A stretch of DNA of 64,000 bases. Origin: a virus. Within the stretch, counting starts at the first letter, position 1, and each line of letters starts with the position of its first letter. Shown here piece after piece: positions 12,783-36,128 of this stretch. The stretch spans positions 125,603 through 189,602 of the IMG/VR virus record IMGVR_UViG_3300027777_000023; one strand, 5' to 3'. The position numbers were made by a program, and so were the translations under genes. The notes under the pieces are model-generated. The model had not been told where the DNA came from. It was given only the letters and a program-made list of their open reading frames with translations, and made no database searches.

Positions 12783-13475
12783 ATGAGCCTAAGTAAACAA
12801 GAAAAAATAACTAAATTAAAAGAATATTTGCGAAACATGAAGTTGGACGCAGGTGTGATGGGTAGAACTATGGGCACGCAAAGTTCGTTTGTTACTCCGC
12901 AAATCATGCTGGATGCCTCTAAAAAATTGCTTAATGTGTTCAGCCGCAAAGAGGCTCCAGATGATCGGGATAATGTGGTGTTTTCTAAATTTCTTGGACC
13001 TGAGGATTATCTTAAAGAACATATCGAACACGACGCAGGTAAGGTACAATTCAAAGCTAAAAGTAAACTAAGGCAGAAACGTAATCTTAGCTGGTTGCAT
13101 GCCGGGTTCTTTACACCTCAAGTTAAAAGTGTGTTTGTTGGTAATAGCCTTGCCCAAAACATCGAAGGCGTTAATCCTATGGAGCAGTATATGCTGGCCC
13201 ATAAAGTAACGAAAATGGGTATGGGAGGGATTGGAAGCACCGAAGCTATCCCAGACAGTTCTCGAGAAGTTAACGAGAGTCAGTTTGGTTTGCTGGATCC
13301 TATCCAAACAGTAGAGGCGACTACTATCGGTGTGGTGAACTTCTTTGTGCACAATATCCGTAAAGGTGCTGACGGTAAACTGTATAGGGAGGTAATTGAC
13401 AACAGTACAGGGAAGCACGTATGGATCGACCATCAAGAGTTTTTAAGCTCTACGATTGACGTACCTGAGCACTAA
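12783..13475 (+). CDS. rpoB: Split RNA polymerase beta subunit, middle (Rif-pocket/fork loop) fragment
   Basis: DRDNVVFSKF ~ DIDHLGNRR; GNSLAQNIEGVNP ~ SSQLSQFMDQNNP; REVNESQFGLLDPIQTVEATTIGVVN ~ [26 protein letters not shown]. Confidence 0.88.
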   Translation: MSLSKQEKITKLKEYLRNMKLDAGVMGRTMGTQSSFVTPQIMLDASKKLLNVFSRKEAPDDRDNVVFSKFLGPEDYLKEHIEHDAGKVQFKAKSKLRQKRNLSWLHAGFFTPQVKSVFVGNSLAQNIEGVNPMEQYMLAHKVTKMGMGGIGSTEAIPDSSREVNESQFGLLDPIQTVEATTIGVVNFFVHNIRKGADGKLYREVIDNSTGKHVWIDHQEFLSSTIDVPEH

Positions 13476-13945
13476 CGTTGAATTGATGGGTCTAATAAAC
13501 CCTGCACCCAAATGCGTTCTGATTCTTCAGCACCAGGTACACGGTTTTCGTAATATAATATACAGTAAACTTTTCTTGTTCCATTATTAGTTACCGTAAA
13601 ACCTCCATCATATTTTTCTAGAGCAAATAGCCCGTTGGATGTAACGTACTGTAAGCCTATTTTAAAGACTACTCCGTATGAACAATCGGGTATATCAATA
13701 TTAAATTTTTCCTTAAAAGTGCAGGCGTCCATAGAATAATTGCCGCGCGGCACGCCACCAAAAATTGTAATATTGTCCCTCGCGGGAACATCTTCCGCCA
13801 AAGCTGCTGCTGTCAGATAACTTTCGGTACTTGGATCATAGGTCTGTAATAGAAACGTGTATACCTCCTCTTCTTCAAGGTGACCATAAATCGTGCTGAT
13901 ATCTATAGATATAGATCCACCGCAGTCGCCAAATAGTACAATCAT
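13472..13945 (-). CDS. Hypothetical protein
   Basis: 157-aa ORF directly downstream of the Cys-rich gene. Confidence 0.65.
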   Translation of the reverse strand: MIVLFGDCGGSISIDISTIYGHLEEEEVYTFLLQTYDPSTESYLTAAALAEDVPARDNITIFGGVPRGNYSMDACTFKEKFNIDIPDCSYGVVFKIGLQYVTSNGLFALEKYDGGFTVTNNGTRKVYCILYYENRVPGAEESERIWVQGLLDPSIQR

Positions 13946-13949
13946 AAAA

Positions 13950-16295: not shown

Positions 16296-16639
16296 TAAAG
16301 CATTCTATTAAATACCAGATAGAAAAACAATATCAAAGGTGCAGACACCAATGCGACAACCAATTGAGGAGCCACACACAGACCCGCAACTAATCCTAAC
16401 CAAAAGCTCAAACAAACAGGACAACAAATTAACCTAACAAAAAAACTATCTCGATAGTATTCATACAAAAAATCTGTATAGGTGCCAGCATATCCCTCAC
16501 CGTGCAGCTTATTGTACTCTGATATGTGTAGAATGCGTGACATACCACACAAAGTTATATATTCTGTAAACGCATTAGTGCGCAACCACACCAACAAAAA
16601 ATAACCTAGAGCAAGGGATATGCAGACGAGCTCAAACAT
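16295..16639 (-). CDS. Membrane protein, DUF1360-like
   Basis: RLICCPVCLSFWLG resembles the DUF1360 CPxCLSxW motif; 3 hydrophobic segments. The start is moved to the ATG at 16639, which removes the overlap. Confidence 0.55.
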   Translation of the reverse strand: MFELVCISLALGYFLLVWLRTNAFTEYITLCGMSRILHISEYNKLHGEGYAGTYTDFLYEYYRDSFFVRLICCPVCLSFWLGLVAGLCVAPQLVVALVSAPLILFFYLVFNRML

Positions 16640-16640
16640 A

Positions 16641-16901: not shown

Positions 16902-16919
16902 AATTTTATCGGTTTAGTT

Positions 16920-18055: not shown

Positions 18056-18460
18056 TTATATCCATTCTGGGAAAGATACTCGATTTGGTCTGGGCTCAAG
18101 CCGATAGTCAATAAATAGCTCTTCATCTTTTCTTATATCTCTGTTAGCGATTATCTTATGCATTGTTAGCTTCCAATCGCAGTTGGGTTCTCTTGAGTGG
18201 TTGATATAGCTGAACTTGCTATACTTATCGCTAGTGATGCACTCTTCATCATTCAGCATCACGTACGGATTTTTACGAATTTGCTCCTCAGTCAAATCAA
18301 CATATCTTGTTTTGTACCAATCTTTTGGAAACATTCTGTAGTCTATCACTAGATCATCTTTGCTTATGTCTTTTGCAGCAAATAAACCAAACCCAGCCAC
18401 AGGGCTATGTTTCACATAGGTGAAAGGTGCATCATCGTTGTCTATGATTATCTCGTTCAT
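18056..18460 (-). CDS. SET-domain protein-lysine methyltransferase
   Basis: HSPVAGFGLFAAKDI, YINHSREPNC and RDIRKDEELFIDY are SET signature motifs I, III and IV. Confidence 0.9.
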   Translation of the reverse strand: MNEIIIDNDDAPFTYVKHSPVAGFGLFAAKDISKDDLVIDYRMFPKDWYKTRYVDLTEEQIRKNPYVMLNDEECITSDKYSKFSYINHSREPNCDWKLTMHKIIANRDIRKDEELFIDYRLEPRPNRVSFPEWI

Positions 18461-19119
18461 TAGTCTTTAATTAGTAGGCTATAGAGTTTGTCTATCTCGT
18501 CTCCTTTATACTGCACACGATTAGCGTTGTAGATTTGCTCTCCCCATGCAGCTTTAATTGCTCCGTCAGAGATGCCTAGATCATGAAGGATGCCGTACAA
18601 TTTAACCTGAGAATTTCTAATCATTAAGATAAACAACTGTTTGTCAGGAAGAAACAAAATACGACCACTCTGACCTGTACGAGCCTCAGGATTGATATGT
18701 GCTTCAGGGATACCGTCTTGACGAATCCTTGAGTATATTCCAGGAAGAAGTCTTTGCTGATTTACGCTTTCGTATTCTGAGCCATTATAAATAACAGTAT
18801 TATGATTAGTAACATATGGTATGTGAGCTATAGTGGTGCTCTTACTTTCCAGAACTTTACCAGAATTTTTGTGTACCAGGTCTATGGTTCCTTTCAAAGC
18901 TACCGTGAGATCCTTTTTATCTAGTACAGCTTGTTTCTGGTGTGTGGTCGTGATATGAGGCAAATCCATCTTCAGATCTCGTACCTGAAGCTTGTGGTCC
19001 GTTGTTTCGATAGCGTTTATTTTTTTACCGAACGCAGCGACTGCTGTATCAAACAGCATATGCCTCAACTTCTCAGGATCGAAAAACGATCTTGTATTTT
19101 CTGGAGGTTTGCTTTGCAT
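18460..19119 (-). CDS. rpoB: Split RNA polymerase beta subunit, N-terminal fragment
   Basis: IAHIPYVTNHNTVIYNGSEYESVNQQRLLPGIY ~ [33 protein letters not shown]. Confidence 0.85.
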   Translation of the reverse strand: MQSKPPENTRSFFDPEKLRHMLFDTAVAAFGKKINAIETTDHKLQVRDLKMDLPHITTTHQKQAVLDKKDLTVALKGTIDLVHKNSGKVLESKSTTIAHIPYVTNHNTVIYNGSEYESVNQQRLLPGIYSRIRQDGIPEAHINPEARTGQSGRILFLPDKQLFILMIRNSQVKLYGILHDLGISDGAIKAAWGEQIYNANRVQYKGDEIDKLYSLLIKD

Positions 19120-19120: not shown

Positions 19121-20947
19121 TTAATCTTTTAACAATCTTTCCAAATAGGCTTTGTTTTGCTTGTCCTCGAGCATCTTTTGCATCTCAGGATATTTTGAAG
19201 TAATTTCAACTTCTTTCTCACTGGGTTTGCTTTCTGCCCTACCTTCTTCCTCAGCTTTATCAAGGACCTTGTTGATTGCTCTGGTTTGAATGGCTTTGGA
19301 CACTGCGTCAGCTACTCCCGCCTCTTTGAGAGAAGCAAACTTGGCGTCACTGAGAGAGTTCACATCTCCAAGTCTGTTAAAGAAAGCTGGCGTGCGCCCT
19401 TGTCCTCCTCCACCAACATTGATGTTGATGTTTTGACCTTGTCCTCCTGAGCCACGATTACGATCTCTGGTCATTAGATAGGCTAGTAAGGCGGCACCTC
19501 CAAGAGGAAGCAGATTATTACCCAGCGCATTATCTCCCAACAGTCCTGTACCTACCGCTTTAACGCTATCGTTAGCTTTGCCCAGTGCTCCGGCGACACC
19601 ATGATAAGCCTTGGAAAGTGTATTGTACGCTTCTGGAAAATTATGATGTAATACACCTTTAACGAATCCACGATCAGCTACATCGTGAGTTAAATCAATA
19701 CCGCCACTGACAGTATTGCCTACTATTTTTGCTGCGTCTCCAACAGCGCCCTCAGCTTTAGCGACCACATCACCTACCGGTCCAGGCAGTGTAGTTTTTG
19801 CTTGTTGTTGGTAGTCTGCAGTGCTTGTAGGTATTTTAAATGTTTGGCCCAAGACTGTGACTTCTCTTCCGGGCATAGAAGGATCTTGGGATATTCCTCC
19901 AATATTGAACAACTGTTTGCGTTTTTCTTCATCGGCTGCTTGTTGATTTTGCAACTTTATGGCTTGCTGCAGTCCTGGAGGCAACGCCGTTGAGGTTGGG
20001 GTTGGGGTCGAGGTTGAGGGTGCGGCAACAGTGGTAGTAGGTCTAGTAGGTGCTGTGGGAGTACTCAACGGCTGCTGTGCCTGTGACGAAGTATAAGGAC
20101 TTCTAGGATTAGCGTTAGGGAAAGTTGCAGCCAAGTATTCATTATTTGGGTCAAATGTGGGAAATGTTGGGGGTGTTACTTTGGTGTAACCTTGCCCTGT
20201 CGACCTCAGAGGATCATACCCAGCAGCTGTGGCTTTTGCCTGTGCGGCTTGATTTGCATTGTAGTCGGCCATTTGTCGTTGATACTTTGGAAAGTGATCT
20301 AGAGTAAATTTTCGCGCTTCCTGAAATTTAGCGTTGTGCTGCCTAAAAGCTTCCTTTTTTTCAGCCATAAAATCATCCATTTGCTGTGGATTGCCGGTAC
20401 GCCTCAATGCGTTTTCAGCTTTGCCATAGTAATCAGTTAATTCATTGTCTCGAGCACGAGCGGCAATATCTACACGATTTACAACGTCTCCGTGAGTTCT
20501 TTGTCGAGAAAAAAGGTCAGGACTGTCAAAAAATCCAGTATGTAGTTGGTCTGCGCGCATATCTTCTGGTGGTGCAGTTGGTGATGCAGCTAGAGGCGCA
20601 GTTATAGGCAGGGTTGGTGGTCGGGTTGGAGGTATTTTAACTGCAGTATCTTTTAGCATATCAAGACCCTGATCCATGTAATCTTTTTTCCTCTTAGCCT
20701 CGCGCGTTATTTTGGTTGCAATAGTCTCAGGAGCAACCTGAGCCGCAGGCATAGCCTCTGGTGAGGGAAATGAAGGTTTGGGTATAGCGGTTGGTTCTAA
20801 CGGCGTGGACCATGACGGGACGGCTGAAAATCTGCGCTGCTGCTCACGCTCCCGATCTTCCAACTGTTGGAAATAATCTGGGGATTTTGCTTGTTTTTCA
20901 AGACCATCATTAACGCCTTTTTCAAGTTCAGTAAAATCTAATTGCAT
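19121..20947 (-). CDS. K-x-A motif protein, Pro/Thr-rich with a C-terminal TM segment (putative head cargo)
   Basis: GVNDGLEKQAKS near the N-terminus; LKEAGV; LLPLGGAALLAYLM. Confidence 0.6.
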   Translation of the reverse strand: MQLDFTELEKGVNDGLEKQAKSPDYFQQLEDREREQQRRFSAVPSWSTPLEPTAIPKPSFPSPEAMPAAQVAPETIATKITREAKRKKDYMDQGLDMLKDTAVKIPPTRPPTLPITAPLAASPTAPPEDMRADQLHTGFFDSPDLFSRQRTHGDVVNRVDIAARARDNELTDYYGKAENALRRTGNPQQMDDFMAEKKEAFRQHNAKFQEARKFTLDHFPKYQRQMADYNANQAAQAKATAAGYDPLRSTGQGYTKVTPPTFPTFDPNNEYLAATFPNANPRSPYTSSQAQQPLSTPTAPTRPTTTVAAPSTSTPTPTSTALPPGLQQAIKLQNQQAADEEKRKQLFNIGGISQDPSMPGREVTVLGQTFKIPTSTADYQQQAKTTLPGPVGDVVAKAEGAVGDAAKIVGNTVSGGIDLTHDVADRGFVKGVLHHNFPEAYNTLSKAYHGVAGALGKANDSVKAVGTGLLGDNALGNNLLPLGGAALLAYLMTRDRNRGSGGQGQNININVGGGGQGRTPAFFNRLGDVNSLSDAKFASLKEAGVADAVSKAIQTRAINKVLDKAEEEGRAESKPSEKEVEITSKYPEMQKMLEDKQNKAYLERLLKD

Positions 20948-20948
20948 A

Positions 20949-22220
20949 TTAGTGATATGGTTGAAGCTCTACGCGTGTGGGTAATTGACCTTCCATGAAC
21001 TCGTCAGGACGTTCACGCATCTTCTTGCGCAAGAGATATGTAAGATAGGCTGATCCTGCGCTGGTTCCTAGCAATCCTGTTGCAGCATAGTCTGCGGCAG
21101 GAGTAAACGGTCTCATTGCTTGATGTGCGGCAGCATCTGCCAATCGGGCAATAGATCCGCTTTCGATAGGTACATCTTCTTTTCTGGATGCGGTCTTACC
21201 AAAAATAGTGTCATGAGCAACTCCACTACAGAACGCGTCCACACAAGGAGTTTCAGATTCTGCAGAGCCTGTCTTTATTCTTGAAAGCAGATCAATATAC
21301 TCTTTTTGTGCAGTCATGAGTTCTTTTTGGATATGCTCTTTCTGCTTATAGTAAAAGTCTTTTTTAGCGTCTCTGAATCCCTCCTGTCCTCCAACCAGCA
21401 TGCGCACAGGATGATTTGCAATACTTCCAACAGCTCGCTGAAACATTCCAGGAGGAACATCATCAAGAGATTCGGCTTTTTTTGATTTAAGTTTTTTATG
21501 AAACTCGAGGTCTGTCAGCATGTCTGCTTTTGTGCTATCCGAGCTCATCAAGTTCTCTTGATCTTTTTCTTTTGTGTACTTGTCAAAAGCATGCCCAGCA
21601 CTCAGCCCTGCGAGAGGAAGCATCAGAGCTTTCAATTTACCAGGTACAGCTTTTCCAAGCATCATACCAGCTGCGCTTCCAGCATACTTACCAGCATTTC
21701 TTTTTAAATGCTCTTTTATCCCTGGATTTTTCTCCATTTCAAAAATGTGCTCTTTGCGCCCGTCGGGACGTTCAATAGTTTTGCTATACTGCATACCTCC
21801 ATGGCCTGGACCAGCATCTAGTACAGAACCTAGCATTCCTCCAGCAATCATCGAGGGCAATCCACCAATAGAGCCGGCGACCATACCAGCGTTTCGTCCG
21901 ATGTTTCTTTTGAACCCTTCTCCAGTATGCTCTTCTGAGCTGGTGGTTTTTGTGTGTTCATAGCTGCCGTCAGGATGTTCCACGATAGAGTATGTGGAGC
22001 GCGCTGCAGCAACTTTCTGAGGCATGAGGTTTTCTGGAATAGGAATTCGAAGCACTTTCTCATCTTCTGTGTTATAGGCTTTCCTCGCTTCTAGACTTCT
22101 GCGAAGCTCTTGTTCTTTGGCCAGCTGCAAAGCGCTAAACAAACTCCCGCCAAAAACCTGAGAGGCCTCGTAGTTTTCTTCTGGAGTTAGTGGAATTTGA
22201 GTGAGTGCTTTCTTGTTCAT
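20949..22220 (-). CDS. K-x-A motif glycine-zipper protein
   Basis: MNKKAL, QKVAAA, KKAES, GKTAS; AGMVAGSIGGLPSMIAGGMLG. Confidence 0.6.
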   Translation of the reverse strand: MNKKALTQIPLTPEENYEASQVFGGSLFSALQLAKEQELRRSLEARKAYNTEDEKVLRIPIPENLMPQKVAAARSTYSIVEHPDGSYEHTKTTSSEEHTGEGFKRNIGRNAGMVAGSIGGLPSMIAGGMLGSVLDAGPGHGGMQYSKTIERPDGRKEHIFEMEKNPGIKEHLKRNAGKYAGSAAGMMLGKAVPGKLKALMLPLAGLSAGHAFDKYTKEKDQENLMSSDSTKADMLTDLEFHKKLKSKKAESLDDVPPGMFQRAVGSIANHPVRMLVGGQEGFRDAKKDFYYKQKEHIQKELMTAQKEYIDLLSRIKTGSAESETPCVDAFCSGVAHDTIFGKTASRKEDVPIESGSIARLADAAAHQAMRPFTPAADYAATGLLGTSAGSAYLTYLLRKKMRERPDEFMEGQLPTRVELQPYH

Positions 22221-22221
22221 G

Positions 22222-22602
22222 TTAATCTTTCTTTTCTTCTTTTGTACCGTAGATGATAAATACTCTAAAGCTTCCCTGCGGGGTCCAGGTGTCTTTCCAG
22301 AGAGTGATCATATACTTTTTGTTATTCATTAATTCGTTAAGCATGTCCTGATCTTTCTGCTGTTCAGGATCAAGAATGATGTTCTTGAATGTGAACGCAC
22401 TCATGTCTTGCGCTCTGGGACGCTTTTTAATTCCTTTTGCTGTTTCAAAAGCGTCAATGACTGCCTCAGGATCAAATCCTTTGTTGGTTACCTCATTGCG
22501 CACATTGCGAGGCGTGACTGAAGCGAGCAAGTCTGCTGCGCTAGAGCCAAAGTCAAAATGTTCTGTTTCTCTTGGTTCAATTCCTTTGTTAAGTAAGTCC
22601 AT
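22222..22602 (-). CDS. Hypothetical protein
   Basis: 126-aa ORF in a tightly packed operon. Confidence 0.7.
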   Translation of the reverse strand: MDLLNKGIEPRETEHFDFGSSAADLLASVTPRNVRNEVTNKGFDPEAVIDAFETAKGIKKRPRAQDMSAFTFKNIILDPEQQKDQDMLNELMNNKKYMITLWKDTWTPQGSFRVFIIYGTKEEKKD

Positions 22603-23119
22603 GTTCTCGTTTAAGGTTGGCTGTTATACGTCTTACTAGAGTAACCTTCTCACGCTCACGTTCAAGAGCTTTATTAAGTCCTTCAACAGATTTATCCATT
22701 TCGTCGAGCCCAAGACCCGCAAGAGCACCACCAGCAAGCGATCCTTTGAATGCTAGCTCTGGAAGATCTCTCAATGCACTGCCTAGCGAGCCAGCGATCA
22801 TTCCTCCAGCTGTGCCGCCAAGCATAGCTCCAACAGGAACTCCGGCCACTCCTCCAAGCATACCTCCACCGGCTGCGCCCGCAAGAGAACCAAGAGCAGT
22901 GCCTGTAATTCCTCCTACGTTTAAATTTTTAGCTGATCCACCGTCAGCAGCTGAAGCATTTTTTACAAGAGAACCCACCGTAGACGCAATCTTATACACA
23001 GCTTCTCCATTGTTGATGTTTTGCAGTGCTGTCTCTAGCTCCTCTAGAGAAGATCCAATCTTTTCCAGTTCCATAGCCAATTCGTTTTTGATGGCCTGTG
23101 CGTATTTTGATAGTTCCAT
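22589..23119 (-). CDS. Glycine-zipper membrane protein with K-x-A motifs
   Basis: MELSKYAQ, YKIAST, VKNASA; long GxxxG array GTALGSLAGAAGGGMLGGVAGVPVGAMLGGTAGGMIAG. Confidence 0.7.
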   Translation of the reverse strand: MELSKYAQAIKNELAMELEKIGSSLEELETALQNINNGEAVYKIASTVGSLVKNASAADGGSAKNLNVGGITGTALGSLAGAAGGGMLGGVAGVPVGAMLGGTAGGMIAGSLGSALRDLPELAFKGSLAGGALAGLGLDEMDKSVEGLNKALEREREKVTLVRRITANLKREHGLT

Positions 23120-23122
23120 AAA

Positions 23123-23494
23123 TTATTGTTTGACGTGAATCATTCCTGTGCTTGGATCGTATTCTGTAAATTTTCTCTTGTGCAGACTATTGTATATTAT
23201 ATTGCCAACACCAAAGCCCGCCAAGCTCAATAGTGTTCTGGCGTGTTTTGGAAGTTCTGCGTACTTTGCGACCACATGCATCATAGCCATTCCAGCAGTA
23301 CCCGCAATAAGATGGTCAAAAACCTCAGGACTTTTAATCAAGCTGAACAACGACTGCTTTTTTTGTTGATCTAGTGCGTGATCCTGTCCAACTAGTTTGA
23401 GCAATGAGCTTGCTGTGAAAGTGGGTGGAGCGTCCACGTCATATCCTTTTGGTAGGATACTAAACATGTCAGATGAGCCGATAGACATACTCAT
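23123..23494 (-). CDS. Small two-TM protein
   Basis: LIAGTAGMAMM and LLSLAGFGVG hydrophobic segments. Confidence 0.65.
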   Translation of the reverse strand: MSMSIGSSDMFSILPKGYDVDAPPTFTASSLLKLVGQDHALDQQKKQSLFSLIKSPEVFDHLIAGTAGMAMMHVVAKYAELPKHARTLLSLAGFGVGNIIYNSLHKRKFTEYDPSTGMIHVKQ

Positions 23495-23496
23495 AA

Positions 23497-24624: not shown

Positions 24625-24627
24625 ACT

Positions 24628-26463
24628 CTAATTTCCTGCTGCAACGTTTCCATTAGCGTCGTAACCCATATTATGCTCAGGGCTTATAGGAGAAACTTCG
24701 ACCAGAGGATGTGCTTTGTTGTGTGCTCCTGTGAGCAAAGGAACTTTATTGTGCCCAAATCCCGGTTGATCCTTCCAATGATTCATTGCGCTAGATAGTC
24801 CTCCTGAGCCTAGAAGGCCTCCTATGGCAGGGAAGATGAACTTTCCGGCCCCTTCATCCATACCCAGCAAATTAGCGAGGCCTAGACCTCCTCCTGCTCC
24901 AAGAATACCACCAAGCAGACGATTGTCCACATTGGGAATTATCTGATGTCTGTTTGTAAGTTCTCCTGTAATGTCTGTAGGGCTTGATAGTTCTTTTAGA
25001 TAATCTCCCACAGGTTTAATAGCTTTTGCAATGGGTTGAACAAACCCTCCCAGGTCAAAAGCTTCTTTCATCATACCCTCTAGAAAGTCTTCGTTAGCAC
25101 CTTCTTTGCGTAGCTGATCGAACACACCCTGCCAGATCAACTCATAGTCTTCATAGCTGGCTGTCTTGTTTGGTTGGACGGGTTGCGGAGCTGACGTTGT
25201 GTTTGCTGGAATGGGTTTAGGCACATTAAGATTTGGTTGTGGTGCTTCTCCTCCTCCTGTGCCGATGTTTAGCTTGATCGGTGTATTGAATGCTGTGCTT
25301 ACAACTTTGGGTGTTGTCGGAGCAGGTGCAGGCTGCTCATGAGGAAGTCCATGGTCATCGCCATTACTGCTGTCGTACGGATTTGTTGGTGTAGGACTGC
25401 TTGCCAGGTTGGTTGGAGAAATTTGAATGTTTGGCGGTGCGGGAGCAGACTGTTCATGAGGAAGTCCAGGGTCGGGGCTTTGATTGCTGTTGTACGGATT
25501 TCCTTGTGGGGCTACAGGAGCCGATTGCGTTGGTGCTGCAGGTTGCGCTGGGGCAGCGTTGCGATTTGCTGCAAACCTATCGTAGTGCTTCATCAACCCA
25601 GCAGGATCGTTCTCCATATGCTGCCGATAGTTGTCACCATATGTGGATTTTAAGCTAGATATGAATTCTTGGTTGTCCTTATGATTAGCATCAGCCAGAT
25701 TAGGATTCTTTTGAAGTAGTTGCTGCTTGGCCTGAACATAGTCTGCAGCTCTGTTAGTTCCACGAGTCATGTTTCCGTAAGCTTGATTAACCTCTGGGGC
25801 ATAGCCTTGAGTTTGATAGCTTTGATTGACTTGCCTGAGAGCTTGTGGGTTAGCGTTGAATCCTTGAGCGACGTCTGCTTGTTGTCGAGCATTTCTTAAC
25901 TGGTTCACATACTCGTTAGCCTTTGTGGCCTCGTCGTACTGTTGATCTTTTAAAAACGGACTAGGAGCCTTCGGGATCGAAGGCATGTTGTCCTGCGTAC
26001 CTATGGGCGCCTGCGGTGTATAGGTCTGACGAATGTGATTAGCCATTTGAGACGCACGCTCCTGGCGAGCCTGCATATTCTGATATGGATTTTCGCGCTG
26101 AGGACGAACACCTGTAGGTCTGCCCCAATTGCCGTTGAGATCCACGTAAGCTTCTTTCAGCATTTCTCTCAGCAAACTTCCTGCTTTTTGAACTCTGACT
26201 GGTTTTGGAACTACCGGTGCAGGAGTGATCGGTGGAACCACTGGTTTTGCTGCTCCGGCTTCGAAGTTCAAGCGTCCTCCTCCTTTCATAAAGTCGTCCG
26301 TATTGACACCCCACTCCTGCAACTGCTGTGGAGTTGCTCGCTGACTCACCCACGGTCTCTCTGTTGATGGGTATTCCGCTGGGATTGGATTCGGTGTGGG
26401 TAGGGGTTTTGTCACTGGCGAACGGTTCCCCGCAAGCTTTGATAGTAGGTTTAACCTTAGCAT
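24628..26463 (-). CDS. K-x-A motif Pro/Gln-rich protein with C-terminal glycine zippers
   Basis: LSKLAGN, LKEAYV, NKTASY, MKEAFD; internal repeat NPY...GLPHEQxAPAP x2; LLGGILGAGGGLGLA. Confidence 0.6.
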   Translation of the reverse strand: MLRLNLLSKLAGNRSPVTKPLPTPNPIPAEYPSTERPWVSQRATPQQLQEWGVNTDDFMKGGGRLNFEAGAAKPVVPPITPAPVVPKPVRVQKAGSLLREMLKEAYVDLNGNWGRPTGVRPQRENPYQNMQARQERASQMANHIRQTYTPQAPIGTQDNMPSIPKAPSPFLKDQQYDEATKANEYVNQLRNARQQADVAQGFNANPQALRQVNQSYQTQGYAPEVNQAYGNMTRGTNRAADYVQAKQQLLQKNPNLADANHKDNQEFISSLKSTYGDNYRQHMENDPAGLMKHYDRFAANRNAAPAQPAAPTQSAPVAPQGNPYNSNQSPDPGLPHEQSAPAPPNIQISPTNLASSPTPTNPYDSSNGDDHGLPHEQPAPAPTTPKVVSTAFNTPIKLNIGTGGGEAPQPNLNVPKPIPANTTSAPQPVQPNKTASYEDYELIWQGVFDQLRKEGANEDFLEGMMKEAFDLGGFVQPIAKAIKPVGDYLKELSSPTDITGELTNRHQIIPNVDNRLLGGILGAGGGLGLANLLGMDEGAGKFIFPAIGGLLGSGGLSSAMNHWKDQPGFGHNKVPLLTGAHNKAHPLVEVSPISPEHNMGYDANGNVAAGN

Positions 26464-27718
26464 TTGAAAGTTTTCTAGGTGTAGTTTTTTCTATTCTACC
26501 GAGTTTACCTTTCTTTTGCAACAAAGGATGCTTGTAATTCTCCCTTTCCTCTGCCTTGGGAATGTGACTGTGCCCCATACGACGCACAGCTACCCTGCAG
26601 AGAGTTTTGTTTTCACCCTTGCCTTTGAGTACTTCGTGGCTTTTGAAAAGTTCGATGAGAGTATGATATGTTTCTACCACCAGGCGGTTGAGATCCTCTA
26701 CGTTTTCAGCTCTAATTTCACGAGCATACTGAGAAACCAGACTGTATGCCCTGTGAAGATAGCTAAAGCTCTTTTCTATAGCTTCAGAGGATCTAGCCAC
26801 TCTGGGAGAGTCTTTTTTAGTTGAGTCTGTTCGATCGATTCTCATTCGACGATCAGGATTTTTCAGATTGAACACCTTTTCCAGCTCTAGAACCTTTCTT
26901 TCTTCACCCTCAGGATCAATCTCGTTAGAGGGAAGAAAGAAGATGAGATGAGTATGAGGACGATATTTTTGAGAGAGTATGCTGTCTACACTGATTTCAT
27001 GACTGTAGCTATAGCTGTAGATCTTTTTGTGTTTAGACAGCTTTGTGAAGTATTCTGAGTTCTTTTTAAAGAACGCTAGATACTTTTCTTGATCAGGCTT
27101 TCTATAGGACTCGTCGCTAGAGATCACAGCCTGATAGGCAACAAAGCCAGCTTTGAATAGAGCTTCAACAGAATAGGTCTTGCAGAACTTCTTATGGGCC
27201 CGTGCACAGCTTTTTGGATCAACAGTGCGGTTGTCTACGCAAACACTGCTATAGCTGTTGTAGGCAGTGTCTGGATCGCGTAGATTGCTGGATATAGCAT
27301 CCTTTCCGTTGTTGAGAATGTTTGTCATGTCGCAACCAATGCTTAAGAGCAAGTGAGCTTCTAGATCTAGCTTTTTTAGACCAAACCTATTGCTGTTGGT
27401 TTTGTCTGAGAGAATGAGAGAACGAAGATTTAACTGAGCATCTCTAGAGAGTAGTTCCCAGTGAGAGACGAGACTATTAACACAAAGCCAGTTAAGACTG
27501 TGATGAGAGTATACAGGCTTATCGCTTTTTACAGAGCAACTACTAGAGCTTAGGCTAGCGCAACTAGACTTAAATCTCGCTACCGCTTCTTTTGAGGGTT
27601 TAGCTACAGGACCATAAAGGAACTCTTCACTGTAGTTGTCATTATGGGCCAGCCTATCTTTTATGCGATAGACGTGGGTTTTCTTTGCCTCTGTGCTTTT
27701 TTCTATAGTCGTCTGCAT
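26039..27718 (-). CDS. Putative HUH-superfamily (rolling-circle Rep-like) endonuclease
   Basis: HEISVDSILSQKYRPHTHLIFF (HUH motif 2-like), EKSFSYLHRAY (candidate catalytic Tyr), upstream Cys cluster. The 3' end overlaps the next gene by 425 nt. Confidence 0.45.
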   Translation of the reverse strand: MQTTIEKSTEAKKTHVYRIKDRLAHNDNYSEEFLYGPVAKPSKEAVARFKSSCASLSSSSCSVKSDKPVYSHHSLNWLCVNSLVSHWELLSRDAQLNLRSLILSDKTNSNRFGLKKLDLEAHLLLSIGCDMTNILNNGKDAISSNLRDPDTAYNSYSSVCVDNRTVDPKSCARAHKKFCKTYSVEALFKAGFVAYQAVISSDESYRKPDQEKYLAFFKKNSEYFTKLSKHKKIYSYSYSHEISVDSILSQKYRPHTHLIFFLPSNEIDPEGEERKVLELEKVFNLKNPDRRMRIDRTDSTKKDSPRVARSSEAIEKSFSYLHRAYSLVSQYAREIRAENVEDLNRLVVETYHTLIELFKSHEVLKGKGENKTLCRVAVRRMGHSHIPKAEERENYKHPLLQKKGKLGRIEKTTPRKLSNAKVKPTIKACGEPFASDKTPTHTESNPSGIPINRETVGESASNSTAVAGVGCQYGRLYERRRTLELRSRSSKTSGSTDHSCTGSSKTSQSSKSRKFAERNAERSLRGSQRQLGQTYRCSSSARKSISEYAGSPGACVSNG

Positions 27719-27763
27719 ACGTGCCTGTACTAGATATATACTTTGAGAGAGGTTAAAGGTCAC

Positions 27764-27968: not shown

Positions 27969-28304
27969 ATGCGCCCCATAGAAAAGATAAAAAGTATTAC
28001 CATACGGAACAAACGCTACAAGTTTGTGGTAAAAAAACTGCGACATGCCAGAGGCAGAACAGAACACCCAGACACTAAAAACAAGACAGTGTATATAGAC
28101 TCTAGAGAAAAAGGCAAAGCGTTGCTGTCCACGCTTATTGATGAGCTCATACATTGCGCTATCTGGGATATACAGAACGAGATCGTGGATGAGATCTCTG
28201 ACGGCATGGCCGATGTGTTGTGGCGCTGTGGACTGAGGTTTACAGACGAGACGGATGAAACCCTGGAAAGCACAACATCAACATATGTCTCTAAAAACCT
28301 TTAA
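27969..28304 (+). CDS. Zincin-like small protein with a DExxH variant motif
   Basis: LLSTLIDELIHCAI sits in the context typical of TLIHELLHA phage metallopeptidase-like proteins. Start at ATG 27969. Confidence 0.5.
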   Translation: MRPIEKIKSITIRNKRYKFVVKKLRHARGRTEHPDTKNKTVYIDSREKGKALLSTLIDELIHCAIWDIQNEIVDEISDGMADVLWRCGLRFTDETDETLESTTSTYVSKNL

Positions 28305-31281
28305 ATTTGCCCTAGTTCACGGCAAGCTTACAAAAGTGCCAAAGTCGCAGAAGTCGAAATATAGCATGATCGACCCTTCGCACTTCTTCAGCCCTGTAAC
28401 TAATCTTATTCCAGGACTCAGCTCAGTATCAGGTGCACGCGTACTAATCGGTGACAAGTCTTCGCTGCAGGCCATGACACTCACCAATCGTGAGGCTCCT
28501 CTGGTGCAGGCAGCGCCCAAAGCCGGAGGCGGAGACAGTTTTGCAAAGCAGTTTGGTAAACTTGTGAGTATTTCTGCAAAGACTGACGGCGTGGTATCTA
28601 AAATCGAGGACGACCACATGATCGTCAAAGACTCGGCAGGTAAAGAACATCATCACGACCGCTACAATAATTACATCATAGGGCGTGAAAGCTATATTCA
28701 CCATACACCTAACGTAAAGGTTGGCGATAAAGTTAAAGAAGGACAACTACTGGCAACATCCAACTACTCTGACCATGAAGGCACATTATCATTAGGGATG
28801 AACCTTAAAACAGCCATCATGCCGTTCAGATCTTTGAATTTCGAAGATTCTTTGGCCATATCTGAGTCAGCAGCTAAAAAATTGGAAGGGGAGCAGCTTA
28901 TTCCTGTGCGTATGGAAATTGCTAGAGGGATCTCTACCGACAAAGACAGGTACATCTCTTTATTTCCAAACAAATACTACAACGACCAGCTCTCACACAT
29001 AGACAGTCATGGTGTGGTGAAGAAAGGTACCGTATTGAAACACGGAGATCCGATCATCCTAGCTTTTCAACCTAAAACACTAAAGTCCCTTGATATCCAG
29101 CTAGGCAAACTGTCCAAAGTTATTCGTAACGCTTTCTCAGACATTTCAGTGGCCTGGGAGTATGAGTATGAGGGTGTGGTGACGGATACTTCAGCCAGTG
29201 GCGGTCTTGTGGCTGTGACAGTAAAAACAAAAAGACCCATGAGTCATGGCGACAAGCTCAACATGCCTTTTGGTGCAAAAGGAGTAGTAAGTATTGTTCC
29301 AGACACGCAAATGCCTCAAGGCGAAGACGGCAAACCTGTGGATGTGTTGTTGAATTCCATGAGTATCACTAGTCGTGTTGCTCCGGGTTTGGTGAATGCA
29401 ATTGGTTTGGGTAAGCTGGCCCAAAAGCAGGGCAAAGCACTTACAATGACAGGTTTCACCGAAGGTTCAGCTGTCCAGAAAGTGATTGATATTTTGGACA
29501 AGCACGGAATAAAAGATACCGAGAAGCTTTATGATCCTTTGTCTGGTAAGCACGTTGAAGTACTCACAGGTCCTCTGTATTTTAATCGTTTGCACCATAT
29601 CGCAGAAGACAAGATATCCGCAAGATCGGCGGCCACGACGTATGATATCAATATGCAGCCTTCAAAGGCAGGCTCGCACGAGAAAGCTAAGCGTATAGGT
29701 AATTTGGCAACAACTGTTGCCCTATCCAACGACGCCAAAGCAGTGCTCAGAGATATTGCCACAGTCAGAGCAACAAAGAACGACGACTTTTGGACAGCTT
29801 TGAAGCTCGGTTTGCCGCCACCTCCACAAAAAGTACCGTTCATATTTGATAAATTTATAGGTCACCTCAAGGGGGCTGGTGTTAATGTACAGCAGGATGG
29901 ATCTAAATTTCATATCATGCCGCAGACAGATAAAGATATTGTGGCGATGTCTCAGGGAGAAATTAAAGAACCTCTAACGTACAAAATTAGAAAAGATTCT
30001 CTTATCGAAGAAGAACACGGGCTTTTTGATCCGTCGTTGGTGGGTATCCATGGCGATAATTTTAATCATATAAGCTTAAACCATAGAATTCCTAATCCTA
30101 TGGCCGAGGATCATCTGCGCAAGCTTTTGAAGATGACCAAAAATGCGTACGAGGAAGCAGCCGCATCAGGCTCGATCGAGAAAGACCTTAAAAAGATCAA
30201 CGTTGACGAAAAGATCGCAGAACTCAAAAAGGTCATAGGGCTAAAAAAGAAAACCGGTAGAGACGACGCAATTAAATCTCTCAGCTTTCTAACGATGCTA
30301 AAGCAGCACAATCTAAAGCCTGAGGATATGTTGTTGTCTAAGATCCCGGTGATTCCTGCGCAATATCGCCCTGTTATGGTTCAGGGGGATCAGGCACTGA
30401 CTGCAGACGTTAATGAGCTATATAAGGATTTAATCATGGTGAATAAATCTTTTGGGGCAGCCAAAGATTCTCCTGACGTTGATCCGGAACACCTCAGTAC
30501 AGCAAAGAAGCAGATATATAATGGTGTTAAAGCTGTTTTTGGTTTAGGTGGACCTATCAACCAGAAGAGTATTGAGAAAGGCTACAAAGGATTATTGGCT
30601 TCTGCTCTGGGTTTGCAGGGAGGCTCGGCCAAAGAAAGTATGTTTCAGGCAAAGGTGGTTAATAAGCCTATTGATCTTGTAGGTCGAGCTGTTTTGCTGC
30701 CGGACTCTAATCTAGATCTAAATCAAAGCAGTATTCCTCAATCTGTAGCGTGGAGCATTTATTCCCCTTTTGTGATTCGGCGTATGGTTCGCATGGGAAT
30801 TCCAGCAACGAAAGCCAGAGAATATCTAGAACACAAACACCCATTAGCGTTACAGGCACTGCATGAAGAGATGGCTGATCGTCCAGGAATCGTTACGCGA
30901 GATCCCCAGCTGTCTAAATACAACTTCCAGGGAATGTATTTGAAGATGAATCCTGATCCCAAGGATTTCTCTATCAAACTAAACCCTCTCGTGTTTAAGG
31001 GATATGGGGCGGACAGTGACGGCGATCAACTCAACGTACAGGTTCCTGCATCAGAAGAAGCAAAGGAAGAAGTCAAGGAGAAGTTATTGCCGGAAAAGAA
31101 CTTAATTTATCACCGCACTTTCTCACCAATTTACACTCCCTCGAATGAAGCTGCAACAGGCTTATTTGCTGCTAGTTTTGAGGATAAGAAAAATCAACCA
31201 AAGAAATATCACTCAGAGCAAGAAGTAGTTAGAGACTTTCTTGCTGGTAAATTAGATATTGGTGACAGGGTAGAAATATAG
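28285..31281 (+). CDS. rpoBC: RNA polymerase betaC-beta'N fusion subunit (contains the catalytic Asp triad)
   Basis: Beta motifs SLQAM, GMNLKTAIMP, NFEDS, GDKLNMPFGAKGV, LHHIAEDKISARS; beta' motifs PVIPAQYRP, KPIDLVGRAV, RDPQL, YGADSDGDQL, PSNEAATGL. Confidence 0.93.
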   Translation: MSLKTFKFALVHGKLTKVPKSQKSKYSMIDPSHFFSPVTNLIPGLSSVSGARVLIGDKSSLQAMTLTNREAPLVQAAPKAGGGDSFAKQFGKLVSISAKTDGVVSKIEDDHMIVKDSAGKEHHHDRYNNYIIGRESYIHHTPNVKVGDKVKEGQLLATSNYSDHEGTLSLGMNLKTAIMPFRSLNFEDSLAISESAAKKLEGEQLIPVRMEIARGISTDKDRYISLFPNKYYNDQLSHIDSHGVVKKGTVLKHGDPIILAFQPKTLKSLDIQLGKLSKVIRNAFSDISVAWEYEYEGVVTDTSASGGLVAVTVKTKRPMSHGDKLNMPFGAKGVVSIVPDTQMPQGEDGKPVDVLLNSMSITSRVAPGLVNAIGLGKLAQKQGKALTMTGFTEGSAVQKVIDILDKHGIKDTEKLYDPLSGKHVEVLTGPLYFNRLHHIAEDKISARSAATTYDINMQPSKAGSHEKAKRIGNLATTVALSNDAKAVLRDIATVRATKNDDFWTALKLGLPPPPQKVPFIFDKFIGHLKGAGVNVQQDGSKFHIMPQTDKDIVAMSQGEIKEPLTYKIRKDSLIEEEHGLFDPSLVGIHGDNFNHISLNHRIPNPMAEDHLRKLLKMTKNAYEEAAASGSIEKDLKKINVDEKIAELKKVIGLKKKTGRDDAIKSLSFLTMLKQHNLKPEDMLLSKIPVIPAQYRPVMVQGDQALTADVNELYKDLIMVNKSFGAAKDSPDVDPEHLSTAKKQIYNGVKAVFGLGGPINQKSIEKGYKGLLASALGLQGGSAKESMFQAKVVNKPIDLVGRAVLLPDSNLDLNQSSIPQSVAWSIYSPFVIRRMVRMGIPATKAREYLEHKHPLALQALHEEMADRPGIVTRDPQLSKYNFQGMYLKMNPDPKDFSIKLNPLVFKGYGADSDGDQLNVQVPASEEAKEEVKEKLLPEKNLIYHRTFSPIYTPSNEAATGLFAASFEDKKNQPKKYHSEQEVVRDFLAGKLDIGDRVEI

Positions 31282-31284
31282 CTG

Positions 31285-31312
31285 TTGACATCCCACCTAT
31301 CCTTTGTATACT
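31285..31312 (+). promoter_or_regulatory. sigma70-like promoter, likely leaderless
   Basis: TTGACA-N16-TATACT; ATG at 31319 is 7 nt downstream. Confidence 0.65.
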
Positions 31313-31318
31313 GGAGGG

Positions 31319-32749
31319 ATGCTAGACATTCAAGGAACACTATCGCGGTTTGGTTACGACCCAGGAACGCTAAAGAGATACTCAGAGCGTCCTGTGCTGA
31401 TATTATGCGATTATTGTGATAAATCGCACGAAACACTGTATTGCAGATACGCCAATAATAATAACATGACCTGCGGCAGCAAAGACTGCAGGAACAAGTT
31501 AACCGAGAAAACCTGTCTCGTTAAGTATGGTACAAAGCACCACCTAGCTTCTGAGGAGGTGAAGGTTAGACGAAAGCACAGCAATATAGCTAAGTATGGT
31601 GTTGCGCATATCGCTCAAGTGGTTGAAATACGTGAGAAGATAAAGGAATCTAATGTGTGTACTTATACAGAAAAAGACGCAGACGGTAATTCCGTGGTTG
31701 TGGAAAAAATCAAAAAAACACATAGAGCCAGGTACGGTGTAGATTTCGCCATCAACAGAGCAGACATTCGAGAAAAGGCCAAAGCTTCAACCAAACTCAG
31801 TTGCGGTGTTGAAAACCCATTCAACTCATCTACGTGTATGCTGAAAGCAGTGGAAACTAAAATAGCGCGTTACGGTACAGCTCATCCAAGTAATTGTTAT
31901 GGTAAGGCGCAGCAAGAATTGGCAGATTGGCTTTTGGCAATTTCAGGTAAAGAGTTCAAAGCAGATTTTAAAATACTCAAAGGAAAAGAAATTGATTTGT
32001 ATAATGAGGAGCTGCGGTTAGGTGTAGAGTATTGCGGCTTATATTGGCATACAGAAGATTCAAGAACACCTCGCGATAGGAATTATCATATAGATAAATT
32101 TAAAAGAGCTAAATCTCAGAATGTAAGACTTATCACAGTGTTTGAAGATGAGTGGGTATATAGACAGACTCAGGTTAAGAATTTTTTACGCTCTGTGCTA
32201 GGTGCAAATGAACATGTGGTTTATGCTAGAAAGTGTAGTGTGCGTGAGATAGTCGGCAGAGATGGTAGAGCTTTTTTTGACGCGCACCATATTCAAGGAG
32301 CCAACAATCTTGGTAAATATTTTGCAGGATTGTTTTATGAAGACAATCTATTGGCTGTGATGAGTTTTGGTCGCCACCATCGAAAATCTTCTCAATTAGT
32401 GTTGGATCGCTTTGCCGTTAGAGATAATTATAGCGTTGTCGGCGGAGCATCTAAACTATTTAAGTTTTTGCTCAGCTTGAGTGGTGTTGAAGAAGTTGTT
32501 AGTTGGTCAGACAACCGTTGGAGTTGGGGAGACGTGTACGTTCAGTTAGGGTTTCAATTAGAGGAATCTCTGGGACCGGACTACAGCTATGTAGATTTTT
32601 CCCACAATTGTCGAAGGTTATCCAAACAGTCTCAGCGCAAAAGTAAAACTAATTGCCCAGCAAACAAGACCGAAAAAGAATTTTCTAACTCTAAAAACTT
32701 GCATAGATTGTGGGATTGCGGCAAGCTGAGGTGGATGTTTCGCAAATAA
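31319..32749 (+). mobile_element. Hef/Vsr-like PD-(D/E)XK endonuclease with KYG repeats fused to a Mom-like GNAT domain
   Basis: N-terminal CxxC; repeats VKYGTKH / AKYGVAH / ARYGVDF / ARYGTAH; EIDLYNEELRLGVEYCGLYWH; C-terminal HHIQG...LDRFA...GGASKLFK...WSDNRW..GDVYVQLGF. Confidence 0.7.
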
Positions 32750-32775
32750 TCTTTATTTTTACGTTGTTTTAAGTT

Positions 32776-32976
32776 ATGCTTGAGGAAAATATATGGTTAC
32801 AGCTGAGTGATGACGAAAAATTCACTGAGCTGGAGACCTATTTAAACGAGCTTATTGAGATAGAGAAAGGTTGTCATGAACTAAGTAATACTGAGGGTCA
32901 GGGCAAACTCCCAAACATTAAAAAAACTTTAAACGACAAAATCTTTAAAATAATAGAACTGGAAAACGCAACATAA
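32776..32976 (+). CDS. Small hypothetical protein
   Basis: 66-aa acidic ORF, tightly coupled to the next gene. Confidence 0.6.
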   Translation: MLEENIWLQLSDDEKFTELETYLNELIEIEKGCHELSNTEGQGKLPNIKKTLNDKIFKIIELENAT

Positions 32977-32977
32977 C

Positions 32978-33856: not shown

Positions 33857-33867
33857 TTGTACATGAT

Positions 33868-34278
33868 ATGCTAGACCTAACCAAATTGGCCACCTATCTA
33901 GACTCGTTTGAGAAAGGTGACCCTAACTACGACAGGGCCTGCTTCATAAAGAGTAAGTTGGCTACTGATTTACAGGATCGCGAAACCATCAACAACGGAG
34001 AAGAAGATGATCTTACTGATAATGACATCACCATGGCTACTCCGGATCAACAATCCTCGAGTAATCAGGAAGGTGAGATAATGGATGGTGTTTTCCAGGA
34101 ATTAGACGCACTAAATCAAATAAAAGAAGAAAAAGAGGAAATTAAGCTGGATCCTAGACAAGAAGTCACAAGAAACCCTAATCTTAATTCTGCCTCGCCT
34201 GAAGATTTTGGCAACAACAGCCTAAACACAAAACAAGCCACATTATTTCAAATACTGCAGAAAAAACTTAATAAGTAA
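33868..34278 (+). CDS. Acidic hypothetical protein with an N-terminal K-x-A motif
   Basis: MLDLTKLATY; TAATG overlap with beta'C. Confidence 0.7.
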   Translation: MLDLTKLATYLDSFEKGDPNYDRACFIKSKLATDLQDRETINNGEEDDLTDNDITMATPDQQSSSNQEGEIMDGVFQELDALNQIKEEKEEIKLDPRQEVTRNPNLNSASPEDFGNNSLNTKQATLFQILQKKLNK

Positions 34279-36128
34279 TGGCTACCACAACAGTAGGACA
34301 TATTCTGTTGAAGTTTTATTTGCCTCAGCAGTTTCAGCATCTGGTACATGATAAAATACTCGATAAAAAGGGTATATCTGTGTTGTTTGCTGAATTGGCT
34401 GAAAAAGCTCCACAGGAGTATTCAAAGATAGTATCCGACCTCACTAAACTAGGATTTGAAATAGCCACAAGACAGGGGACATCTCTGACGTTGCGAGATC
34501 TAGTAAGCCCTATCGACAAAGATAAATTGTGGGGCGGTTTTGATGCATTCAAAGATAAGGTTGAGGCCACCAAAGACTCTCGCGCAATTAAAGACAGCAA
34601 GATCTTTGATCATTATAACACTATGATGAGTAATGTCGAAAAAGACATTCTAGCTCAGGGATTGAAAGAAAATAAATCTCTAGCGAAGATTATTTTGGCA
34701 GGCTCTCGCGGTTCTCCAGCACAGTATCGAGGAACTATAGCCACTCAAGGCATTGTTGTTGATGCTGAAGGAAAACCTAAGATGGATATTCCTATTAAAA
34801 GCTCATACGCTGAAGGATTGACGCTTCCTGAATATCTAACAACATCTTTTGGAGCTAGAACTGGTGAAGTATTAAAGAAAATTTCCGTGGCGCAGGGAGG
34901 ATACGGATCAAAACAATTTGCACGAGCACTCATGCCATTACAGATTGTTGAAGCTGACTGTGGTACTCTTAACGGTATTGATATACTTGTTTCAGACCGC
35001 GAGTCTATTGGTGCACATCTTTCCAAGGCTGTTGAAGGCTACAACAGAAACAACGAGGTTACGGCCAAAATGCTCAACGACCTCAAGTCAAAGGGCGTCA
35101 AACATATTTTCATTCGGTCACCGATGACTTGCCAGTCAAATAAGAAACATCATTCTGGCGGCTTATGTCAGATGTGTGTGGGTAGGCGAGAAAAAGGTAT
35201 GGCAGCTATGGATAGTTATATTGGTCTTGTGGCAGGAACCGCCGTGGCTGAACCACTCACAGAAAGTGCTATGAAAGCCCGACATTCAGGGGGAGCAGCC
35301 ACATCACTAGGAGGTCAGCAGGGGTTTAAACTTATTAACCAGTTGGCAAATGTTCCAAAAACATTTATCAGCAAAGCACCGTTAGCTCAGGCTGACGGTT
35401 TTATCACCAAGCTTGAACCTGCTGCGGCTGGAGGGCACTTTATCAGTGTTAACGACGAAGAACATTACATAGGTCTAGGACAAGATCCAGTAGTTAAACA
35501 CGGCGACCGCGTAGAACAAGGCCAAGTATTAAGTACCGGACTCATAGATCCTAGAGACGTTGTGGAACGCAAGGGTATTGGGGAAGGTCGAAAGTATTAT
35601 ATGGAGGCAATGAAAAAGGCCTTTGACGATAGCGGACTTGGCGTTAATCGCCGAAACTTTGAACTTATCGCAAAAGCTGCAATCGATCATGTGAGGGTCA
35701 CAGATCCGCACGGGCTAGGTAATTATCTGCCTGACCAGGTGGTATCATATTCTGCGATTGAAAAAGATTATGTGCCCAGAGAAGATTCAAAGCAGATGCG
35801 TGTAGATCTGGCATATGGCAAATACCTCGAAAAACCGGAACTTCACTATACTATAGGCACTAAAATAACTTCACAGGTGGTAGCAAAGCTGAAAGAGCAC
35901 GATATTGAGTCTGTTATTGTTCATGATGAGCATCCGCACTTTGAGCCTGTGATGGTTCGTCTGGTTGATATCCCTGAACATAACGAAGATTGGATGGCTG
36001 TGTTGAACAGCACTAACTTAGCCAAGCGTTTTGTCAACATGGTCAACAGAGGAGCAACTTCTGACACTGCCGGTCCACACCCTGTACCTGGTCTTGCTTA
36101 TGGTAAAGGTTTTGGTGAAAAAGGCTAA
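34278..36128 (+). CDS. rpoC: Split RNA polymerase beta' subunit, C-terminal part
   Basis: TTVG; GSRGSPAQ; bridge helix SYAEGLTLPEYLTTSFGARTG; EADCGT, RSPMTC, LCQMC (second Zn site); trigger loop AEPLTESAMKARHSGG. Confidence 0.93.
   Translation: MATTTVGHILLKFYLPQQFQHLVHDKILDKKGISVLFAELAEKAPQEYSKIVSDLTKLGFEIATRQGTSLTLRDLVSPIDKDKLWGGFDAFKDKVEATKDSRAIKDSKIFDHYNTMMSNVEKDILAQGLKENKSLAKIILAGSRGSPAQYRGTIATQGIVVDAEGKPKMDIPIKSSYAEGLTLPEYLTTSFGARTGEVLKKISVAQGGYGSKQFARALMPLQIVEADCGTLNGIDILVSDRESIGAHLSKAVEGYNRNNEVTAKMLNDLKSKGVKHIFIRSPMTCQSNKKHHSGGLCQMCVGRREKGMAAMDSYIGLVAGTAVAEPLTESAMKARHSGGAATSLGGQQGFKLINQLANVPKTFISKAPLAQADGFITKLEPAAAGGHFISVNDEEHYIGLGQDPVVKHGDRVEQGQVLSTGLIDPRDVVERKGIGEGRKYYMEAMKKAFDDSGLGVNRRNFELIAKAAIDHVRVTDPHGLGNYLPDQVVSYSAIEKDYVPREDSKQMRVDLAYGKYLEKPELHYTIGTKITSQVVAKLKEHDIESVIVHDEHPHFEPVMVRLVDIPEHNEDWMAVLNSTNLAKRFVNMVNRGATSDTAGPHPVPGLAYGKGFGEKG

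Follow-up and report, generated by a model that had tools for sequence, protein, structure and literature searches.

The final 64 kb of the IMG/VR virus record IMGVR_UViG_3300027777_000023, a single contig of 189,602 bp, carry four genes that look like pieces of the two large subunits of a bacterial RNA polymerase (RNAP). Are these the chains of one working enzyme and, if so, where did such a dispersed layout come from and when during infection would the enzyme be used? We analysed the whole stretch of 64,000 nucleotides (positions 125,603 to 189,602 of the record; hereafter, the window) together with the rest of the contig. By its gene content, the contig is a near-complete tailed-phage genome, since it encodes homologues of the terminase, portal, capsid and sheath-region protein of the Salmonella myophage Arash; its ends overlap by 644 nt at 99% identity and its completeness is estimated at 97%. 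The four genes are predicted to encode the chains of one active, DNA-dependent core with two double-psi barrels, the only RNAP of this genome, which would synthesize RNA. We put at roughly 65% the probability that this core, with its chains separate and its activity as predicted, is packaged in the virion and used, with a sigma factor and without α, as an early RNAP.

A four-gene RNA polymerase core

All four open reading frames (ORFs) named in the original prediction were recovered at the same positions and on the same strands: βN, β-middle, a fusion of βC with β′N, and β′C (Table 1). The in-frame fusion is indeed a single ORF of 998 amino acids (aa), in which the β domain Rpb2_6 of Pfam (E 3e-47) is followed by the β′ domains Rpb1_1 and Rpb1_2, and of the motifs on the two sides of the junction, GVNVQ begins at 29878 and FHIMPQTD at 29908. 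Its span was placed by alignment to Salmonella RpoB and RpoC, and it holds both double-psi barrels, the flap and the clamp helices. A PDB search with this ORF returned RpoB chains as well as RpoC chains, and its AlphaFold model matches bacterial β and β′ chains. The view that this compact phage enzyme carries both barrels on one polypeptide is supported. Alternative upstream starts at 12699 for β-middle and 28255 for the fusion were discarded because homologues begin at the equivalents of 12783 and 28285.

β-middle matches Pfam Rpb2_3. βN is the least recognizable of the four pieces: no RNAP family was among its Pfam matches, and a Tim44 match fell below the cut-off and was spurious. Its identity is backed by profile and fold. 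The βN profile matches cyanobacterial RpoB 71-201 (E 5e-11), residues 9-120 of its model superpose on Thermus β1 (Z 7.3, root-mean-square deviation 3.0, 105 aligned) and residues 124-219 on the E. coli lobe at 151-373 (Z 7.2, root-mean-square deviation 3.6, 93 aligned). The first β cut therefore falls within the lobe; the methods place it between about RpoB 355 and 375. The idea that much of the lobe is lost was overstated, as the lobe is compact and mostly kept. βN and β-middle together have 449 aa, about 40-55 residues fewer than the ~490 of Synechococcus or the ~505 of Thermus over the same span, and the length gap to E. coli β is mostly an insertion specific to the E. coli lineage. What is missing relative to enteric RpoB and RpoC consists mainly of such lineage-specific insertions, plus the β′ zinc-binding domain. 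The second β cut, near RpoB 635, presumably resembles the archaeal B″/B′ split. The β′ cut lies just before the TTVG motif, as had been noticed, and the cyanobacterial one later: residue 3 of β′C aligns with RpoC 571, residue 11 of cyanobacterial RpoC2 aligns with residue 24 of β′C, and cyanobacterial and plastid RpoC2 begin ~13-14 residues after the phage cut.

The catalytic center appears complete. The DxDxD triad of the β′ barrel reads ADSDGD at 31009, within a sequence that retains Rpb1_2, and is the sole DxDGD in a six-frame scan of the genome; its second position varies (F, Y, H) across the family of fused RNAPs described below. The β lysines of GDKL and GAKG align with conserved RpoB lysines, and the β histidine (NRLHH) and the trigger-loop histidine are kept. 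β′C contains the bridge helix, the trigger loop and the second zinc site, which uses its only four cysteines; the 998-aa fusion has no cysteine and no β′ N-terminal zinc-binding domain. Because the rifampicin pocket differs in the alignment at the equivalents of D516, H526, R529 and S531, insensitivity to rifampicin is expected. At the level of sequence, the four pieces are shown to sum to a compact β plus β′ with the catalytic residues kept.

The genes are intact and maintained. In the three pieces tested, the proportion of nonsynonymous differences (pN) is 0.09-0.16 against a saturated synonymous proportion (pS) of 0.75-0.86, i.e., purifying selection, and βN itself has pN 0.15-0.16 with saturated pS. 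At least 120 homologues, 53-84% identical, match the 998-aa chain over nearly its full length. Nine IMG/VR genomes share the order and strands of β-middle (+), βN (-), fusion (+) and β′C (+), and separate βN and β-middle genes also occur in two contigs at ~50% identity.

Table 1. Features of the RNAP locus and of the phage genome discussed in the text. Coordinates refer to the window unless marked as genome.
Feature	Coordinates	Strand	Content	Basis or setting
βN	18460..19119	-	219 aa; first parts of β1 (protrusion) and of the β2 lobe	profile, model match
β-middle	12783..13475	+	230 aa; end of lobe, rest of β1, fork loop, rifampicin-pocket region, to ~RpoB 635
βC-β′N fusion	28285..31281	+	998 aa; RpoB ~636-1340 joined to RpoC ~18-550
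β′C	34278..36128	+	616 aa; from RpoC ~570; bridge helix, trigger loop, second zinc site
gp10-like sigma-70-type gene	genome 4860-5489	+	Sigma70_r3 and C-terminal helix-turn-helix	baseplate-region genes
ECF-like sigma gene	genome 62575-63153			replication region
Candidate phage-specific promoter motif	3978..3992	+	GGTATAATAYWTTGA	motif scan
Second copy of this motif in the window	7570..7584	+	GGTATAATAYWTTGA	motif scan
Homologue of Arash virion protein gp218	36205..38457	+	750-aa protein after β′C	phmmer E 4e-17
Probable head maturation protease	44256..46871	+	LAGLIDADG-type intein; homologue of Arash gp222	homology
Major capsid protein	50512..51471	+	homologue of Arash gp226	E 8e-33

Descent from a two-chain fused enzyme

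The pieces tile a longer protein. Arash gp206 (1525 aa) consists of all of β fused to β′N, and βN corresponds to its residues 36-222, β-middle to 231-469 and the betaC-β′N fusion to 480-1524, while β′C is the orthologue of Arash gp216 (606 aa). The same colinear tiling is seen against Vibrio phage D69. When 1.84 billion representatives were searched with profiles and the best 150 matches inspected, the whole fusion, with all three segments on one chain, was present in ~120 of them, and nearly all fused relatives among these 150 reach the same β′ end point.

Trees were built with FastTree (180 rows) and IQ-TREE (28 rows, LG+G4), using a small outgroup sample of bacteria and YerA41/Carin-5; phiKZ/AR9 and mReC sequences lie outside the tree, and RP13, TM30, Va2 and 3098 were left out because PF00562 missed their β genes. 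The 998-aa form is one clade (100/100) nested in the fused family (100/100), although for three clade members (P0083, P0132, P0101) only the short chain, and not the βN and β-middle genes, was seen. A subclade (98/99) holds the 998-aa clade plus some whole fusions, and whole fusions occupy the deeper branches (Arash/D69, L065, P0181). The family, with Arash and D69, is one clade (100/100) separate from bacteria and from YerA41/Carin-5. Because the four-chain clade nests among whole fusions, the fusion is shown on this tree to be ancestral and the two β cuts derived, the genes having apparently been dispersed after cutting. As judged from the tree, the phage RNAP descends from an enzyme of two chains that hundreds of phages, Arash included, possess. 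The alignment and tree proposed in the original prediction therefore qualify its view of an independently derived minimal RNAP: the core is compact and free of α and ω, but the fusion is inherited and the unusual event of this clade is the splitting of β. Grouping with a described family of the same split and fusion pattern would have spoken against the original prediction, and the enzyme does group with Arash, whose fusion and β′ split are the same; Arash, however, lacks the two β cuts, and the Arash paper does not describe the layout.

The cut near RpoB 635 is recurrent. Two unrelated members (L094, L095) are in a three-chain state, with a 449-466-aa βN+middle gene just upstream of βC-β′N. 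The parts are separated in L094 by one in-frame TAG, so that this split could be read-through or a sequencing error, and in L095 by an inserted gene. A common origin for every cut near RpoB 635, uniting these two with the four-chain clade, was rejected by the approximately unbiased (AU) test (p 1.9e-8), so that this cut was made three times or more. The cuts may plausibly have come about through mobile elements, since inteins are common in the fused RNAP family and Vibrio phage D181 has, in its fused gene, a group I intron that carries a homing endonuclease and sits at a site other than the β cuts. D181 (L017) has group I introns at 5051-5331 and 1254-1461, one of them inside the fused RNAP gene, which GenBank annotates as separate hypothetical ORFs. 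Some β-middle homologues (P0121-P0124) are ~573 aa long and carry an insertion of ~340 aa, probably an intein.

Sigma factors and promoter candidates

No α or ω gene (PF01193, PF01000, PF01192) was found in the phage genome or its relatives, in searches whose positive controls worked, and there is no second RNAP set in the genome, which gives one match per sub-profile and the single DxDGD. The earlier statement that α, ω and sigma are missing holds within the window, and for α and ω genome-wide; two sigma genes lie elsewhere in the genome. One of them is a homologue, and the orthologue, of the Arash virion protein gp10 (E 3e-14); it occurs in 10/10 relatives tested, with identities that track those of the RNAP. 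The second, of the extracytoplasmic function (ECF) type, was rejected as a conserved partner, its distribution being patchy and the query unmatched in most relatives. Lacking α, ω and the β′ N-terminal zinc-binding domain, the phage RNAP is predicted to work like a canonical cellular core but is not one.

The 15-bp motif GGTATAATAYWTTGA is a candidate target of the phage holoenzyme. It has 7 genome copies, all on one strand and mostly shortly upstream of genes, and 3-4 copies in each of four relatives; a reversed control gave no matches. A second repeated intergenic motif, TGATAGCTAAAAA, occurs at 100-134 kb of the genome (including ~6900 and 8680 in the window), often beside long G/C runs. 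In several relatives, sigma-70-like sequences of the TTGATA-17-TAAYAT type were seen by eye just upstream of the fusion gene. Also by eye, the fusion and β-middle genes of several relatives have a -35/-10-like pair that ends ~7 nt ahead of the start ATG, with no Shine-Dalgarno sequence, which suggests that both mRNAs are leaderless there. A promoter search by program detected no sigma-70 site ahead of β-middle, which makes the site seen there by eye a weak one.

Proposed virion packaging and alternative explanations

We hypothesize that each of the four chains is made on its own and that they come together non-covalently, with no α or ω, the tether between β and β′ standing in for part of the assembly role of α. 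Assembly of this kind is suggested by two precedents: the α-less split core of AR9 is catalytically active (PMC7598289), and the fusion in a yeast virus-like element appeared essential (PMC6211774). The conserved sigma-70-type factor (genome 4860-5489) and the enzyme would be packed together in the head, injected with the DNA and used to transcribe early genes, possibly from GGTATAATAYWTTGA sites. Transcription of later genes may fall to the host RNAP, or to this core with a different sigma.

The packaging step leans on Arash, the one family member for which the RNAP is reported from virions. Among the proteins of purified particles, gp206 ranked first in detection (3516 spectra, 128 peptides), gp216 gave 1210 spectra and gp10 467 (PMC10585845), which by our own arithmetic amounts to ~2.0-2.3 spectra per residue for each of the three.

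Several observations pull the other way. Many enzymes appear in the Arash proteome, for which the authors considered, besides packaging for early transcription, carry-over from infected cells (PMC10585845). The SNF2 helicase gp217, which is encoded beside β′C in Arash, has no match in the phage genome. GGTATAATAYWTTGA was found in just 5/10 clade genomes searched and in neither Arash nor D69, and it resembles the host extended -10 element; it could be a host extended -10 promoter. The model of the fusion has low global confidence (predicted template modelling score, pTM, 0.38) and so does not show the two barrels docked.

The alternative that survives best, unlikely as we consider it, is a real enzyme that stays out of the virion: made after the host RNAP transcribes its genes, it would serve middle or late genes. 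This would suit the sigma-70-like sequences upstream of the fusion gene, possible carry-over in the Arash proteomics, and the presence of one RNAP set only, compared with two in phiKZ-type phages that have a virion enzyme. Host-type promoters, however, would fit late synthesis for packaging as well, the RNAP genes sit among structural genes, and gp206 leads the Arash virion list with its 128 peptides when several replication enzymes have just 2-11. Less probable still is a core that is not self-sufficient and borrows α and ω from the host or uses an unrecognized phage scaffold, e.g., the gp218-like protein, an explanation that can coexist with virion packaging. More chains need more assembly help, the conserved neighbors (36205-38457) are uncharacterized, and a highly diverged α would escape profile searches; nevertheless, AR9 functions without α, and the differing hosts of the family (Salmonella, Vibrio and probably bacteria of the Planctomycetes-Verrucomicrobia-Chlamydiae group) are a poor fit with dependence on a host α. 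We give very little credence to the pieces being rejoined into one chain by RNA trans-splicing or split inteins, despite the inteins and the D181 intron noted in this family: the pieces have no residues beyond the junctions and contain no cysteine, so no intein halves are present at the cuts, and Rfam finds no intron in the window. An assembly chimera or decaying pseudogenes, which the spread over 23 kb and both strands, the replacement of ADFDGD by ADSDGD and the missing zinc-binding domain might suggest, can be dismissed in view of the nine independent genomes with the same layout, the full-length homologues, the purifying selection and the natural variability of that second position.

Beyond the packaged early enzyme favored here, we tentatively advance a broader claim, at slightly less than even odds: that these phages form an undescribed large lineage with a self-assembling, truly sigma-70-dependent, virion-delivered RNAP free of α, ω and zinc ribbon, in which the covalent tether between β and β′ replaces α and leaves β free to fragment repeatedly at domain boundaries.

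Genome neighborhood and host

β′C is the first of a run of head genes, the same placement as in Arash, and is followed by the three homologues of Arash proteins in Table 1. In PHROGs, no family was found for βN, capsid or sheath. The stretches 19121-26463 and 36205-51873 encode many proteins of low complexity that carry K-x-A motifs, as is typical for the region of the head genes; the four RNAP chains carry no obvious terminal copy of this motif. Directly downstream of βN, and overlapping its stop codon by 1 base, lies a SET-domain protein (18056-18460, -; Pfam E 1e-16), possibly a protein methyltransferase. The fusion gene is preceded by a weakly REP-like ORF (26039-27763, -) and directly followed by a DUF7487/Mom-like, endonuclease-like gene (31304-32749, +), possibly mobile elements near the RNAP pieces. 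Genes resembling the large and small subunits of ribonucleotide reductase and a dCMP deaminase (8687-12543, -; partly a by-eye reading) run divergently from β-middle.

Elsewhere in the genome, at 111587-115928, a DUF1501 gene adjoins a planctomycete cytochrome c/DUF1549/DUF1553 gene, a pair that hints, as a lead only, at a host in Planctomycetota or Verrucomicrobiota. Contigs of this phage family, up to 157-227 kb, are binned in metagenome-assembled genomes of Sediminibacterium, Dependentiae, Dehalococcoidia and Gammaproteobacteria; these are probably mis-binned phages and no evidence of host.

Implications

This analysis adds a direction of change, from fusion to split, a repeated cut and a co-inherited sigma. 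The α-less RNAPs of AR9 and phiKZ are too diverged for residue-by-residue comparison with bacteria and have no recognizable sigma. The fused family, by comparison, is alignable, has a conserved sigma-70-type factor, amounts to 120 or more clusters at 50% identity and includes a member culturable on laboratory Salmonella, so that the role of α and the packaging and injection of a sigma-dependent enzyme become testable. Because the split subunits here derive from a fusion, and one cut arose on at least three occasions, a split phage RNAP is not necessarily left over from an ancient state of many pieces, the origin that has been argued for the phiKZ group (PMC7824862); the direction of our tree says nothing direct on the phiKZ group itself. 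If the broader claim made above is right, the clade would be the most fragmented working form, and nature would thereby have mapped the modules that a bacterial-type holoenzyme minimally needs.

Comparison with known systems

The RNAPs of phiKZ and AR9 are likewise split, α- and ω-less two-barrel enzymes with β′ cut after the barrel and one set packaged in the virion, but they come as two paralogous sets, have their barrels on separate chains, lack a recognizable sigma gene and are far more diverged (PMC7598289, PMC7824862); the phage described here has a single set, carries its two barrels on the same chain and encodes clear sigma-70-type factors. Its fragments keep readily recognized bacterial motifs, as first noticed, and in sequence are much nearer to bacterial RpoB and RpoC than to subunits of the phiKZ/AR9 type, with bacterial matches down to E ~1e-30 compared with 8e-10 for the AR9-like SA1. 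Such alignable motifs are shared with the mReC phages (Weinheimer and Aylward 2020, PMC7481178), which are defined by separate β and β′ of at least 800 aa each; a fused enzyme with split β′, as read from these genes, is set apart from mReC by definition. Moraphages (PMC12619734) were discarded as relatives, as they have no RNAP.

Outside phages, ORF6 and ORF7 of the yeast virus-like element pGKL2 also fuse β regions to part of β′, with both barrels on one chain and a separate β′ C-terminal chain; that RNAP groups with poxvirus-like eukaryotic viral enzymes, and its β′ cut lies further downstream, between β′a15 and a16 (PMC6211774). We regard it as an architectural parallel only. Among cellular enzymes, cyanobacterial and plastid RpoC1/RpoC2 are cut in the same inter-domain region of β′, the phage cut being ~14 residues earlier. 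Helicobacter and Wolbachia have a whole β-β′ fusion in which the end of β is joined to the start of β′, as in the phage enzyme. These cellular enzymes keep α, ω and the zinc-binding domain, whereas the phage enzyme does without them.

The closest counterparts are Arash gp206, gp216 and gp10 (OQ632216; PMC10585845) and their equivalents in Vibrio phages D69, D148 and D181, orthologous along their whole length at 27-32% identity. The Arash paper labels gp206 "subunit beta", without the fusion layout or an activity test (PMC10585845), and our literature search, with most subscription papers outside its reach, found no paper describing the two-chain or the four-chain layout. Arash and the Vibrio phages have the same β-β′N junction, the same β′ cut, near RpoC 550-570, and the same loss of the zinc-binding domain, and they have no α or ω; Arash further shares the terminase, portal, capsid, sheath-region protein and gp10-like sigma. 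Arash keeps β whole, in a two-chain enzyme, whereas the phage enzyme has β cut twice and its genes scattered, and it is hence a variant of this unnamed Arash-type family of fused RNAPs.

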